From assembly GCA_964016885.1 (NCBI GenBank), contig OZ024741.1, forward strand, positions 142,538,001 through 142,602,000: a stretch of DNA of 64,000 bases, in the 5' to 3' direction. A program made the translations under genes and the position numbers. Shown here piece after piece: positions 13,611-54,140 of this stretch (the stretch's first letter is position 1; the number at the start of each line of letters is the position of its first letter). The notes below the pieces were generated by a model. It was not told the origin of the DNA and made no database searches. It was given only the letters and a program-made list of their open reading frames with translations. The stretch comes from Eledone cirrhosa. Its lineage: Eukaryota.

Positions 13611-13848
13611 TGAGTGGTTTTCTAATTATACACACACACACACACACACATTATATATATATTGAAATTATGTCAGTTTCTACTCAATTATTTGAGAATT
13701 CTAATGTGTACGACACGACATTCAGTACACTACCACCAATACCATATCTAAATTCTTGTCATTGGCCAACTATTATTTTGTAACCTTTATGCAAATTGTT
13801 TCTCCGTGTAAAGTCTTCTGTCAACTGATGAAAATAAGCTTGCGTAGA

Positions 13849-13894
13849 CTATGCTCCGCTGATGAGGACCAGTAAGACTGAAACATGTCCATAG
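13849..13894 (+). ncRNA. Decayed type I hammerhead ribozyme motif
   Basis: CTGATGA 13859-65, GAAA 13880-83, palindromic stem III ACATGT, GUC site; CTATG/CATAG outer stem I present, inner stem I partner missing. Confidence 0.5.
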
Positions 13895-14474
13895 CTGATC
13901 AGCTTGCTTAGAAACAAGAATCAGATTTTTCCCTAGTTTCTGTGGCATTAATTAATTTCATGAAATTATCTTTCCTTTCCTTTTTCTTTTCGTGAATCAG
14001 TAACAATTACCGCTAGTTTCTTTTTTTTTTTTTCTTTCTCCGACTAAAAGGGAAATTTCAGTTTAGAATTCTTTTTGCGTACGTCATTCAATAACCCTCC
14101 TCCTTGAGTGTGTGTGTGTTTGTGATGTTTGAGCGGGGATGCGTATTTGTGTGTATGTTTGGTTGTTTGCGTGTGCTTTATCGCACAGGCGATATGGTGA
14201 GAGACACCGTGTGTGCTAATTTTACACTAAACATCATCATCAACAACAATAATGTCTACCCCCTCCTTCAACGCTGATGAGAAGTATGTTATTTTGCAGC
14301 AGCAGCTACTACTACTACTAATACTACTACTGCAACGACTAGTACGACTACAAAAATAGTAACCAACCACATCACAGCCTGCTAAAAATAATAACCGAAT
14401 CTCAATGAAAACAGGAAAAACGGATTGGACAATACAGCTGTGATGGTCACGGTTAGAATGCCGTTAATTATATA

Positions 14475-41352: not shown

Positions 41353-41701
41353 GGTTTCCTACTGATTCTACTCTCACTGCCTGTCTTCACCATGCATAAA
41401 CAGATACGCTAACGCATATGAATATAATCATTTACATGTATATAAACTATGTATCTACATACATGTATTGCTTGAAGTTTCCCTCTATTCATACATCCAC
41501 ACAATATTATGTGTGTGAAGGGGTGTGCAAAAGGTAAACGGAAACAACAAAGCAAACAACACAGTACAATGAAGAAATATATTAGTTTAATGCAAGATGT
41601 AGTAGGAAAGGAGTTTTTACGTTTCAGATAATAGTCCTTCATCAGAAGATAGAACAAGAAATAAAAGATGAAATAGAAAGAGAGTGAGAAGAGGGAACGG
41701 G

Positions 41702-42297
41702 AAATGTATGTATACGTACATACAAATATGTATACAGACGTACAGTAGTATGTATATATATATACATACATGCACACATATATATATGCACGTATCGGTT
41801 TACCGAACAGTAAGTGCCGTACTAAGAGTGAGAAATGAAATTTCGTTTCATTCTATTCCATTTATCGTTTTCGGTGTGCCCGGCCGACTGAACTCACTCG
41901 ATATGCAAATTAGGCTGCTCAGCCGTTAATATGCATAAGGAAAGTATATACTTTCAGACGTTCAACCATCTGGCAGGAAGGTATACGATGCTGACGATAG
42001 CTAATAAGCTTGTAACTAGTACATCGTTCCTGTGTCAGTGTTGAACAAAAAGGTGACGTGGTTGCCTAAACACTGTACGGCGTAATTCGGGCTGTTTGTT
42101 TACAAACAAACAAACCGAGCATTATAATAAATGTTCGGTAAACCGATACGTGCATATATATATGTGTGTATGTATGTATATATATATATATACATACATA
42201 CTACTGTACGTCTGTTTAGATATATGTATGTACGTATACATACATTTAAGTAAGTGCCGTACTAAGAGTGAGAAATGAAATTTCGTTTCATTCTATT
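41702..42297 (+). mobile_element. Non-coding HHR-containing mini-Penelope / retrozyme-like element (inverted arm + 440-bp unit + 47-bp tail)
   Basis: 41702-41809 is the reverse complement of 42132-42246; 47-bp direct repeat at 41811 and 42251; HHR at 41976-42031; ends in (TA)n. Confidence 0.75.
41976..42031 (+). ncRNA. Type I hammerhead ribozyme with one core substitution (GAAA>GTAA)
   Basis: ACGATG-CTGACGA-T AGCT AATA AGCT T-GTAA-CTAG-TA-CATCGT; 6-bp stem I extended by AGGA/TCCT across a bulge. Confidence 0.75.
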
Positions 42298-42304
42298 ATA
42301 TATA

Positions 42305-42360
<56 letters not shown>

Positions 42361-42474
42361 AAAATCCTATATATATATATATATATATAATCCGATTTTC
42401 CTATTACCCACTCTACTACCCTAAGTATTGAGTACTCTGGTCCGTCTGGTTCCTTACCACACCTCCTTCGTTAT

Positions 42475-42507
<33 letters not shown>

Positions 42508-43056: not shown

Positions 43057-44556
43057 TATATAGTATATAATATATATAATATATATAATATATATATTAT
43101 ATATAATATATATATTATATATAATATATATATTATATATAATATATATATTATATATAATATATATATTATATATAATATATATATTATATATAATATA
43201 TATATTATATATAATATATATATTATATATAATATATATATTATATATAATATATATATTATATATAATATATATATTATATATATTATATATATTATAT
43301 ATATTTATATATAATATATATATTATATATAATATATATATATATAATATATATTATATATAATATATATATTATATATAATATATATATTATATATAAT
43401 ATATATATTATATATATATATATATTATATATATATTATATATAATATATATATATATATAATATATATATTATATATAATATATATATTATATATAATA
43501 TATATATTATATATAATATATATAATATATATTATATATATTATATATATAATATATATAATATAATAATATATATATTATATATAATATATATATTATA
43601 TATAATATATATATTATATATAATATATATATTATATATAATATATAATATATATATAATATATATAATATATATTATATATATTATATATATAATATAT
43701 ATAATATATATAATATATATATTATATATAATATATATATATATATATATAATATATAATATATATATAATATATATTATATATATTATATATATAATAT
43801 ATATAATATATATAATATATATATTATATATAATATATATATTATATATAATATATATATTATATATAATATATATATTATATATAATATATATATTATA
43901 TATAATATATATATTATATATATTATATATAATATATATATTATATATAATATATATATTATATATAATATATATATTATATATAATATATATATTATAT
44001 ATATATTATATATAATATATATATTATATATAATATATATATTATATATAATATATATATTATATATATATTATATATAATATATATTATATATAATATA
44101 TATATTATATATATATTATATATAATATATATATTATATATAATATATATTATATTTAATATATATATTTAATATATATTTATATATATAATATATATTA
44201 TATATATTATATATATATATATAATATATATTATATATAATATATAATATATAATATATATTATATATAATATATAATATATATAATTTATAATATATAT
44301 TATATATAAATATAATATATATAATATATATAATATATATATAATATATATATATATAATATATATATATTATATATATATATATTATATATATATATAT
44401 TATATTTATATATATATATATTATATATATTATATATATATATATAATATATATATATATAATATATATATATAATATATATATATATAATATATATATA
44501 TAATATATATATATAATATATATATATATAATATATATATAATATATAATATATAT

Positions 44557-44588
<32 letters not shown>

Positions 44589-44910
44589 ATATATATATAT
44601 ATATAATATATATATATAATATATATATATATAATATATATATATAATATATATATATAATATATATATATATAATATATATATAATATATATATATATA
44701 ATATATATATATATAATATATATATATATATAATATATATATATATAATATATATATATATAAATATAATATATATATATAATATATATATATATAATAT
44801 ATATATATATAATATAATATATATATATATAATATATATATATATAATATATATATATAATATATATAATATATAATATATATAATATATATATATATAA
44901 TATATATATT

Positions 44911-44943
<33 letters not shown>

Positions 44944-44953
44944 TATATATAAT

Positions 44954-44998
<45 letters not shown>

Positions 44999-45048
44999 TA
45001 TATATAATATATATATATAATATATATAATATATAATATATATAATAT

Positions 45049-45099
<51 letters not shown>

Positions 45100-45334
45100 T
45101 ATATAATATATATATAATATATATAATATATAATATATATAATATATATAATATATATATATATATATATAATATAATATATATATAATATATATATATA
45201 ATATATATAATATATAATATATATAATATATATATATATAATATATATATATATATAATATATATATATAATATATATATATATAATATATATATATATA
45301 ATATATATATATATAATATATATAATATATATAT

Positions 45335-45400
<66 letters not shown>

Positions 45401-45426
45401 ATATATATATAATATATATATATATA

Positions 45427-45460
<34 letters not shown>

Positions 45461-46590
45461 ATATAATATATATAATATATATATATATATAATATATATA
45501 ATATATATATATATATAATATATATATATAATATATATATATATAATATATATATATATAATATATATATATATATAATATATATATAATATATATATAT
45601 ATAATATATATATATATATAATATATATATATATATATAATATATATATAATATATATATATATAATATATATATATATATAATATATATATATAATATA
45701 TATATATAATATATATATAATATATATATATATAATATATATATATATAATATATATATAATATATAATATATATATATAATATATATATATATAATATA
45801 TATATAATATATATATATATAATATATATATATATATAATATATATATAATATATATATATAAATATATATATATATAATTATATATATATAATATATAT
45901 ATATATATAATATATATATATATATAATATATATATATATAATATATATATATATAATATATATATATATAATTATATATATATAATATATATATATAAT
46001 ACATAATATATATATAATATATATATATATAATATATATATATAATATATATATATAATATATAATATATATATAATATATATATATATATAATATATAT
46101 ATATATAATATATATATATAATATATATATATATAATATATATATATATAATATATATATATAATATATATATATAATATATAATATATATATAATATAT
46201 ATATATAATATATATATATATATATAATATATATTTATATATAATATATATATAATATATATATATATAATATATATATAATATATATATATATATAATA
46301 TATATATATATATATAATATATATTTATATATAATATATATATAATATATATATATATAATATATATATAATATATATATATATATAATATATATATAAT
46401 ATATATATAATATATATATAATATATATATATATAATATATATATATATATAATATATATATATATAATATATATATAATAATATATATATAATATATAT
46501 ATATATAATATATAATATATATATATATAATATATATATATATATATAATATATATATATATATATAATATATATATATATATAATATAT

Positions 46591-46635
<45 letters not shown>

Positions 46636-46980
46636 TATATATAATATATATATATATATAATATATAATATATATATATATAATATATTATAAATATATA
46701 ATATATATATATATAATATATATATAATATATAATATATAATATATATATATAATATATATATATATAATATATATATATATAATATATATATATATAAT
46801 ATATATATATAATATTATATATAATATATAATATATATATAATATATAATATATATATAATATATATATATAATATATATATATAATATATAATATATAT
46901 ATATATATAATATATAAATATATATATAATATATAATATATATATAATATATATATATATATAATATATAATATATATAT

Positions 46981-47014
<34 letters not shown>

Positions 47015-47314
47015 ATATATATATATATATAATATATATATATATAATATATATATATATAATATATATAATATATATATATAATATATATATATATAAT
47101 ATATATAATATATATATATAATATATATTATATATATATAATATATAATATATATTATATATATATATAATATATATTATATATATATAATATATAATAT
47201 ATATTATATATATATATAATATATAAATATAAATATAATATATAATATATAAATATAATATATAATATATATATATATAATATATAATATATATAATATA
47301 TATATATATATATG

Positions 47315-47345
<31 letters not shown>

Positions 47346-48191
47346 CTTATAATATTATATATATGATATACTATATACATATTATATATATATATATATA
47401 ATATATATATACATATAATATATATATATGATATATAATATATATATATATAATATATATATATGATATATAATATATATATATATATTATATATATATG
47501 ATATATATATATATAATATATATATATATAATATATGATATATATATATATGATATATATATATATAATATATATATATGATATATATATATATATATAT
47601 ATATGATATATATATATAATATATATATGATATATATATATATATATATATTATATAGATATATATATATATAATATATATATATGATATATATATATAT
47701 AATATATATATATGATATATATATATATAATATATATATATAATAATATATAATATATATATATATAATATATATATAATATATATATATATATGATATA
47801 TATATATATATAATATATATATAATATATATATATAATATATATATAATATATATATATATAATATATAATATATATATATATATGATATATATATATAT
47901 ATATAATATATATATATATAATATATGATATATATATAATATATATATATATAATATATATATAATATATATATATAATATATATATAATATATATATAT
48001 AATATATATATAATATATATATATATAATATATATATATAATATATATATAATATATATATATATAATATATGATATATATATAATATATATATATAATA
48101 TATATATAATATATAATATATATATAATATATATATAATATATAATATATATATAATATATATATATATAATATATATATAATATATAATA

Positions 48192-48239
<48 letters not shown>

Positions 48240-48240
48240 T

Positions 48241-48285
<45 letters not shown>

Positions 48286-48518
48286 TATATATATAATATA
48301 TATATATATATAATATATATAAATATATATATATATATAATATATATATATATATAATATATATAAATATATATATATATATAATATATATAATATATAT
48401 ATATATATATAATATATATATATAATATATAATATATAATATATAAATATAATATATATATATATAATATATATATATAATATATATATAATATATATAT
48501 ATAATATATATATATAAT

Positions 48519-48550
<32 letters not shown>

Positions 48551-49162
48551 ATATATATATAATATATATATATAATATATATATATAATATATATATATA
48601 ATATATATATATATAATATATATATATAATATATATATATAATATATATATATAATATATATATATAATATATATATATAATATATATATATAATATATA
48701 TATATAATATATATATATAATATATATATATATATATAATATATATATATAATATATATATATATAATATATAATATATATATATATATATTATATATAT
48801 ATATAATATATTATATATATATATAATATATATATAAAATATATAATATATATATAATATATATATATAATATATAATATATATATAATATATATATATA
48901 ATATATTATATATATATATAATATATATATAAAATATATAATATATATATAATATATATATATAATATATATATATAATATATATATAATATATATTATA
49001 TATAATATATATAATATATATATATATATATTATATATATAATATATATATAATATATATATAATATATATATATAATATATATATATAATATATATATA
49101 TATTATATATATAATATATATATATAATATATATATATACATAATATATAATATATATATAT
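43057..49162. repeat. ~6.1-kb (TA)n mega-array with AA/TT/TGA interruptions
   Basis: Nearly pure A/T; 18-bp period AATATATATATTATATAT at the start. Confidence 0.98.
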
Positions 49163-51938: not shown

Positions 51939-52102
51939 AGTTAGTTCACCATACCGAGACCAATGGTTTCACCTTATGCGGATCTTCAGCTCAGACTGGT
52001 CATAGTTATACGGAACAGGAAGAACAAGTGTATAACCATGACCAGTCCGAGCTGAAGATCCGCATAAGGTGAAACAATTGTTCTCGGTATGGTGAACTAA
52101 CT
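51939..52102. mobile_element. Palindromic element with two divergent hammerhead motifs (inverted Penelope pLTR-like)
   Basis: 73-bp arms 51939-52011 / 52030-52102 with 4 mismatches and an 18-nt spacer; each arm contains CTGAAGA..GAAAC. Confidence 0.85.
52035..52093 (+). ncRNA. Type I hammerhead ribozyme, intact core
   Basis: CCGAG-CTGAAGA-T CC GCATAA GG T-GAAA-CAATTG-TT-CTCGG; stem I extended by ACCAT/ATGGT; predicted cleavage after 52082. Confidence 0.75.
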
Positions 52103-53192: not shown

Positions 53193-53326
53193 CACACACA
53201 CATTATATATATGATACGTGTGTGTGTTCCACCCCCACTCCCCAATTCTAAAAATAATTTTTTCCCGTTCCTTTCTCTTCCCAATCTCAATTTTTCTATT
53301 TCATCTTTTATTTTTTTCTCATTCCA

Positions 53327-53362
53327 TCTTCTGATGAAGGTCTAGTATCCGAAACGTAGAGA
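53327..53362 (+). ncRNA. Minimal Penelope-type hammerhead motif
   Basis: TCTT-CTGATGA-AGG TCTAGTAT CC-GAAA-CG-TA-GAGA; loopless palindromic ACGT stem III. Confidence 0.55.
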
Positions 53363-54140
53363 CTCTTTTCCTACTATATTAAGCATTAAACTAATATATT
53401 TCTTCGTTGTACTGTGTTGTTTCTGTTTACCTTTTGCATATATATATAATACACTTAGACGGTTATTTATAATATATATAATACAGACGACAACAGAAAG
53501 AGGAGAGGGTTCAGAAAAGGAAAAAAATAAATACATGAGAATACAACAGACAATAGAAGGAAACGTAAAGTGAGAAGAAAGAGAAATACAAAATACACGT
53601 TGATAAAGCAAGCCGAGATGAGGAGGGGAGGAGGAATGACCAGCGTAAAAAGGAACGGGAGTGGGAGGAGAGACAGAGAACTCTCCCGGACAACCTATTC
53701 AGTTTGATCTTTTCATCTCGTGATATTTTGTTTGCTTTCTTTCTATTTTTTCTTTTGAAAGGGAAAGTACAATTCGGCTATTACAAAAGATATGTGGGTG
53801 TCTGAGTGAATCCATGGGATTTGTCAAAGAAAGTAGCTAGGGTTTGAACGAAAAGTTTTGAGTGAAAGAAATTGTTAAGCTCCCTCGTCCTCCTCTAAGG
53901 ACAATAAGAAGTTTGGTGAGCCACGAAAGATGTTGAAAATAACTTCCCCTTATTCACACTCATAAGCCAAACACATTTCACGTGTGTATGTGTATATATA
54001 ATAAAATAAATATGGTTTTATAAATATAGTTTCCATTTATTTAATATGATTGAATATTTACTCCAGTAACTTGTTGAGTGTTCTAAATCAGTTATAAACA
54101 TTTATGTTTGTCGGACTTCAATAAATTAATGCAACTTCTA

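Follow-up and report, generated by a model that had tools for sequence, protein, structure and literature searches.

Non-LTR retrozymes have been described in coral, mussel and axolotl, in which they accumulate as RNA circles and for which Penelope-like elements (PLEs) have been proposed as mobilisers (PMC7229834). A 2026 preprint treats retrozymes as non-autonomous PLE sequences on the basis of co-occurrence and likeness to pLTRs; no mollusc figures in the sampling given in its available text, which also calls its own life-cycle evidence limited (10.64898/2026.07.22.740005). Non-autonomous tandem PLEs are known in Chlamydomonas, and PLE insertions are described as carrying an inverted truncated arm and a tail at one end only, with several clades targeting (TA)n (10.1101/2021.04.23.441226). 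In vitro, the tail corresponds to the stretch between two internal reverse transcriptase (RT) start sites (PMC11167929). For the enzyme that spreads animal retrozymes, PLEs are named as a strong candidate (PMC7229834). Our literature search found no cephalopod retrozyme: there is none in the main text of PMC7229834 or 10.64898/2026.07.22.740005 or in the available part of PMC6155905, and the words 'ribozyme' and 'non-autonomous' are absent from the accessible text of the Octopus vulgaris repeat annotation (PMC13282606).

Here we describe a non-coding hammerhead element from the 3.0-Gb genome of Eledone cirrhosa, found in a 64,000-nucleotide stretch of DNA (the window). The window copy is unremarkable in itself, one decayed member among the many of a large retrozyme family. 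Our main reading, to which we assign a probability of about 0.8, is that it is a decayed copy of an ORF-less non-LTR retrozyme with PLE-type ends, likely copied in trans by a Penelope-like RT/GIY-YIG enzyme; the broader statement, that this is a retrozyme moved by PLE machinery, we hold with high confidence.

Architecture and insertion pattern of the family

The window copy is organized around a direct repeat (41809-41857 = 42249-42297), and we numbered its unit from u1 (41809) to u440 (42248). A sequence-only reading had recognised this repeat and its 440-bp period; both stand, with the starts at 41809 and 42249, but the exact match is 49 bp rather than 47 bp and reaches 57 nt at looser identity (95%). 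The inverted arm in that reading is likewise real, its counterpart ending at 42247 instead of 42246, and the two differ by four substitutions and one 8-nt gap. No ORF had been seen, and indeed the longest open frame is 75 codons in the window copy and 77 codons across the four stretches checked. The coordinates of the features are given in Table 1.

Table 1. Features of the window copy, in window positions
Feature	Position	Strand	Remark
Inverted 5'-truncated arm, u324-439	41702..41809	-	Reverse complement of 42132-42247; stops at the family short 3' end
Full non-coding unit, 440 nt	41809..42248	+	Family units 420-496 nt; no ORF
Octamer-like motif ATGCAAAT within a conserved helix	41903..41910	+	Common to families A and B
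Type I hammerhead, predicted cut after 42021	41979..42031	+	GTAA replaces GAAA in the window copy
Predicted long-range helix, 42073-42081 with 42256-42262	42073..42262	+	Encloses the short 3' end
Penelope-type tail, second copy of u1-49	42249..42297	+	Hairpin at 42272-42292
(TA)n run at the tail end	42298..42389		Usual target of the family

The element had been said to end in (TA)n, which holds for its right end but not for its left arm, which stops inside an older repeat. A private 8-nt deletion lies just before the tail and is common to both arms; its reading is ambiguous, as the terminal T's may be target-derived. The 10-nt junction spacer of the window copy recurs at none of 125 other junctions, and a target-site duplication, looked for at this insertion, was not found. 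The short tail is real as well, although its length in the family is approximately 57 nt and not the 47 nt first given: most copies reach u1-57, compared with u1-49 in the window copy. We considered the tail as an artefact of the point at which the window copy is truncated and rejected this, given the fixed ~57-nt tail across family arms. The one-sided tail of the family matches the one-end tail of PLEs, and hence the tail is genuine and the window copy is a typical insertion, with 1.1 units and a tail on one side and a short-ended arm on the other.

Several repeats surround the window copy. The older repeat, which carries a minimal PLE-type hammerhead, occurs at 41401-41701 (minus strand, core at 41645; the copy within which the left arm terminates) and at 53264-53422 (plus strand, core at 53331), the two being 83% alike, and has more copies in eight fetched loci. 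Other hammerhead-like cores lie at 13825-13900 (+), 52052 (+), 51989 (-) and 37929 (-), of which those at 52052 and 51989 form an inverted pair, as in PLE insertions. A TA-rich tandem array of 6.1 kb (43057-49162) adjoins the element. A common short repeat ending in (TA)n, present at 42380-42500 and in the flanks of L031, L262 and L267, is often the target, and many families are nested in the same TA runs.

Throughout the genome, we counted 9,768 exact matches to the 32-nt GAAA core and none to its reversed control, which excludes chance. The GTAA form has 23, roughly the number that mutation after insertion would be expected to yield, and in the contigs of run X1 position 42013 is A in 1,339,817 of a depth of 1,340,057. 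A multicopy family with a GAAA consensus and with tandem and permuted copies had been predicted from the window alone, and all of this is seen. Copies are dispersed and in short tandem arrays; the head-to-tail repeats run from dimers to multimers with a type I hammerhead in each unit, as in retrozymes, and the GC content of the unit is 37%. The element is also present in the sequencing runs of two other organisms.

The family of the window copy (family A) has a sister, family B, with units of 465-469 nt that are collinear with A along the whole unit (score 282, against 65 ± 10 for shuffled sequences). Since A and B are collinear and lack an ORF, the lineage diverged as ORF-less units. A pattern for cores without U at position 10.1 gave 11,331 extra matches (control, 7), and arrays of up to 31 units were found among the related-core matches; a search that kept stem III and varied stem II returned 24 sequences, most of them mutated copies. 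The ribozyme motif has at least 21,000 copies, which makes this a major young repeat of the genome. Family B, exemplified at L157:1719-2183, is younger than A and has G-C at the base of stem II; a subfamily with C-G or C-A at that position, between A and B, was observed in L175 and L242-L245. The 31-unit array (G000:C1:5738326-5752444) retains a short end, an inverted arm and a tail.

The insertion ends carry the Penelope link. There are 1,174 exact tail-(TA) junctions in the genome, and our sample comprised the first 91, at 90 loci, all on contig C1. The 3' ends of 185 arms fell at u41-60 (107), at u431-444 (57) or elsewhere (21), and the 61 head-to-head pairs comprised 43 of short plus tail, 2 of tail plus tail, 2 of short plus short and 14 others, counts that come from a tail-anchored sample in which a TA-rich palindromic segment may mimic short arms. 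The family has two fixed 3' ends approximately 57 nt apart that lead into (TA)n, and its 5' ends are spread along the unit; family B has the same two-ended pattern with a tail of about 68-73 nt. The insertions display 5' truncation, partial tandems, an inverted arm, a one-sided tail and (TA)n targets, the hallmarks of Penelope, which supports the earlier proposal of a non-autonomous retroelement moved by Penelope machinery. As a separate observation, 11 arm 5' ends lie in the bin u111-120 (window ~41919-41928), compared with about three per bin elsewhere outside the TA-rich part; this bin is at a predicted hairpin adjoining the octamer-like motif.

Hammerhead motif and predicted RNA folds

The window copy had been thought to contain a well-folded type I hammerhead that departed from the textbook form only in having GTAA for GAAA. 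The motif is present at 41979-42031, with the core CTGACGA at 41991, GTAA at 42012 and the predicted cut after u213, but folding the window hammerhead alone did not yield it (z -1.1). Nor is GTAA the sole departure: throughout family A the pair at the base of stem II (10.1/11.1) is also U-U in place of G-C, which is what family B has there. Stem II, previously taken as AGCT/AGCT, is best read as three base pairs and a six-nucleotide loop UAAYAA (UAAUAA in the window copy) above this U-U. The six base pairs of stem I stand as first described, extended by a U-U pair, a UA bulge and three further pairs, and stem III is palindromic as claimed. The UA bulge, the UAAYAA loop and the palindromic stem III are kept in both A and B. 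Having lost GAAA, the window copy is predicted to be inactive, and the U-U at 10.1/11.1 may slow the predicted cleavage in family A. The proposed check with hammerhead models gave no match above threshold: Rfam reported no hammerhead in the window copy, only miRNA-like matches to its TA repeats, and intact A (17.6 bits) and B (34.2 bits) stay below the Hammerhead_HH9 threshold of 52.

We examined covariation in 16 variants picked from the recurring ones, together with the window copy. The hammerhead pairing held in 92.6% of cells, compared with 27-46% in slid controls, and 6 of 16 pairs, in stems I and II, were changed on both sides; this covariation stems mostly from the single A/B split, and the count of changed pairs was matched by 102 of 500 shuffles. 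A GTAA consensus without stem covariation would have spoken against the ribozyme, and the opposite is seen: GAAA is kept, the stems covary, and cleavage therefore appears to be selected. In other systems, hammerheads with a 2-bp palindromic stem III are expected to act as dimers (PMC4209133), and eight of nine Xenopus retrozymes gave no cleavage in vitro (10.64898/2026.07.22.740005).

Beyond the hammerhead, the unit as a whole is predicted to be structured. Circular folds of all four natural units gave z scores of -5.5 to -11.4 (25 shuffles each), and in these folds the extended stem I links both ends of the monomer. RNAalifold on 14 units returned 16 of 79 pairs with two-sided change, in an alignment that does not place the tail hairpins of A and B in register. 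Among them is a long-range helix round the short end (columns 58-65 with 281-288), three pairs of which were changed on both sides. The octamer-like motif is kept in 112 of 132 contexts and lies in a helix at columns 382-417. A promoter role for it is our guess; newt satellite 2 carries an snRNA-type promoter.

Template, enzyme and rival explanations

If a cut linear monomer were the template, tail arms should stop 288 nt from the end. Among the 91 tail-anchored arms, whose median length is 235 nt, 41 reach the cut site; one stops within 10 nt of it and 40 cross. More than one unit is contained in 25 of the 91, and two cut sites are crossed in 5. Such crossing would be expected from a circle and from an uncut multimer alike. 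A rare-variant test on 183 copies from 104 of 120 loci bears on the origin of the units. Rare variants were held in common at 3.6 per kb by tandem neighbours and 3.2 per kb by inverted arms, compared with 0.19 per kb between loci; locus L280 supplied 12 of the 25 variants common to inverted arms, and without it the rate is 1.8 per kb. Private variants numbered 34-38 per kb in tandem neighbours, in inverted arms and between loci alike. Rare variants in common, together with equal private variants, indicate one source lineage per insertion, with units that are mostly as old as the insertion. Unrelated copies have no more private variants than tandem neighbours do, and recent duplication therefore does not account for most short arrays. 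In a nearest-neighbour test, 23 of 74 units matched nearest within their own insertion. Judged from these DNA comparisons, a circle would best explain units of one lineage together with cut-site crossing, and on balance we favour a circle as the main template.

The long arrays are varied. The two arms of L238 contain 13 full units among which no column varies, and L240 has scattered differences only; in the 31-unit array, L237, L248 and L091 the variants alternate or come in blocks, which points to later recombination. We rejected long arrays as proof of a rolling circle.

The strongest rival keeps the same element and the same PLE machinery and has as its template a linear uncut multimer from tandem master arrays, with a late or weak hammerhead and no circle. 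We regard this as a serious contender with a sizeable minority chance of being right. In the anole PLE, unprocessed RNA was the main in vitro substrate and no reads ended at the cut site (PMC11167929); the arrays of up to 31 units are possible sources of a multimer, the U-U pair at the stem II base of family A is in keeping with a weak ribozyme, and arms are short, with few crossing two cut sites. These points are set against the kept core and covarying stems, the extended stem I that links the two monomer ends, and the identical units of L238, which occur while other long arrays are heterogeneous; the circles in which the coral, mussel and axolotl retrozymes accumulate (PMC7229834) also tell against a template that never circularises.

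Whether the copies belong to a larger, coding element is a separate matter. They could be 5'-truncated ends (solo pLTRs) of an unseen autonomous PLE, or descendants of its pLTR, and this would agree with insertion features that are all PLE-like and with the Xenopus data, where homology to known elements, almost always PLEs, was seen for 24 of 57 retrozyme families (10.64898/2026.07.22.740005). Our coverage took in 50 of the 10,597 GIY-YIG candidates and some hundreds of the family's thousands of loci, which also leaves room for it, and an old pLTR origin is conceivable. Within that coverage, the evidence makes this reading improbable. Arms that exceed one unit (101 of 267, from 143 loci) continue into a further unit, and the 57 free 5' flanks have no breakpoint in common, only common repeats at differing unit positions. 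PLE protein matches, some overlapping, occur in 15 of 234 family loci, and none is joined in sense 5' of a unit as judged by position, three of the 15 loci having been viewed in detail. Attachment to full Penelope ORFs had been named as the outcome that would reduce the element to a solo pLTR; among the sampled loci, no RT/GIY-YIG ORF is joined to a unit as it would be in an autonomous PLE. In run X1, the share of the 11,831 contigs that continues into unlike sequence is given as 0, with 235 loose ends not displayed; the four sequencing-run contig sets, of unspecified kind, served for variants only. Furthermore, A and B are collinear without an ORF, and the hammerhead has the canonical extended stem I, not the minimal PLE form.

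Another reading, very unlikely and largely refuted, makes the element a satellite or SINE-like repeat that owes its spread to DNA recombination or LINE machinery and keeps the hammerhead as a relic: the longest arrays do show satellite-like reshuffling and the unit contains a TA-rich low-complexity segment, but the insertions are dispersed and short, their 3' ends are fixed and their 5' ends vary, their inverted arms have one tail, tandem neighbours are as rich in private variants as unrelated copies, and we found no tRNA gene in four loci and no A box in four stretches, with a B-box-like match in L101 only.

For a retrozyme copied in trans, a partner enzyme can be sought among the autonomous PLEs. 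Among the 50 GIY-YIG loci that we read are some with open frames of 938, 844 and 1,096 aa that contain an RT and a CX2-5CxxC linker, and it is from this linker that we class them as putatively Neptune-type. Barring separate unit insertions, these 50 of 10,597 loci contain no extended sequence in common with the unit. A tentative partner is the young, putatively Neptune-type L111 family, whose copies are 98-99% identical, have two ends 63 nt apart and target (TA)n. Its first end resembles the A tail end over 30 nt (p = 0.0005, one of 35 comparisons and first spotted by eye), a likeness that sets the partner's first end against the second end of A in a T-rich stretch. The L122 family is a weaker candidate (p 0.006-0.015), and the family B tail matched no autonomous end (best p 0.08).

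We also observed hammerheads in the 3' regions of PLE loci. Those of L111, L112, L117 and L122 have a variant core of the U3-A8 type, with GCAA for GAAA in L117 and L122; a variant core of this type has been described for Cercyon PLEs (PMC4209133). In the 3' regions of an ORF-bearing PLE family (L090, L114, L115, L120, L123 and L126), the hammerhead likewise combines a palindromic stem III with U-U at the stem II base; the family is otherwise unlike the unit.

Returning to the circle as template, the retrozyme might spread as follows. Loci with two ribozymes would be transcribed, and the hammerheads, because stem III is a 2-bp palindrome, would cut as a pair to give unit-length RNA with its ends held by the extended stem I. 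The released unit RNA would probably be ligated to a circle. A PLE protein would nick both (TA)n strands, and RT would start at two internal sites, one per strand, producing two arms, one of them with the tail. Synthesis could cross the junction and go round again until it breaks off, and some long arrays may have grown later by unequal recombination. In its most specific form, each insertion would record rolling-circle target-primed reverse transcription by the L111 protein, which would recognise one circular ribozyme-made RNA by its conserved fold and by an approximately 25-nt mimic of the partner's own start site, and would go round it on both sides from two internal starts at the nicked (TA)n strands. 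This form of the proposal is possible and rather doubtful; if true, it would identify the enzyme that spreads an animal retrozyme and the RNA that is copied.

Comparison with retrozymes and Penelope-like elements

The family resembles the metazoan non-LTR retrozymes: its tandem units lack an ORF and contain a type I hammerhead, its GC content is low, it has thousands of copies that range from monomers to long multimers, the unit is structured and PLEs occur in the same genome. Its short palindromic stem III resembles the motifs of dimer-acting amphibian retrozymes. The 420-496-nt unit is longer than the 170-400-nt RNAs of PMC7229834 and falls within the 51-972 bp of 10.64898/2026.07.22.740005. 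The U-U of family A at 10.1/11.1 is unlike the described metazoan non-LTR retrozymes. Circles and cleavage have been shown for those elements and are predicted for the present family.

With the EN+ PLEs (Neptune, Hydra and Naiad; 10.1101/2021.04.23.441226, PMC11167929, PMC4209133), the family has in common 5' truncation, partial tandems, an inverted 5'-truncated arm, a tail at one end, (TA)n targets, a hammerhead inside the repeat and 3' ends internal to the ribozyme-defined RNA. It differs from them in lacking an RT or GIY-YIG ORF, in its canonical extended-type hammerhead and in its tails of about 57 nt (A) and 68-73 nt (B), which exceed the usual 30-40. The MRC1/Chlamys PLEs of Chlamydomonas are those of a green alga, target (CA)n and mostly lack hammerheads (10.1101/2021.04.23.441226), and, unlike MRC1, the present family resembles an autonomous family over only ~25 nt.

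In this family, which has hammerheads and no ORF, the ends of the insertions display the PLE signature and allow the RT start sites to be predicted exactly. The family also offers stem II variants that occur naturally (U-U versus G-C) for comparison and a candidate partner whose open frame spans 938 aa, so that an in vitro PLE assay that already exists could be used to test the mechanism. The available text of PMC7229834 and 10.64898/2026.07.22.740005 describes neither the two fixed ends nor a one-sided tail or inverted arms. The kind of element and its Penelope link are already in print; what this family adds is unusually direct evidence from the insertions themselves.
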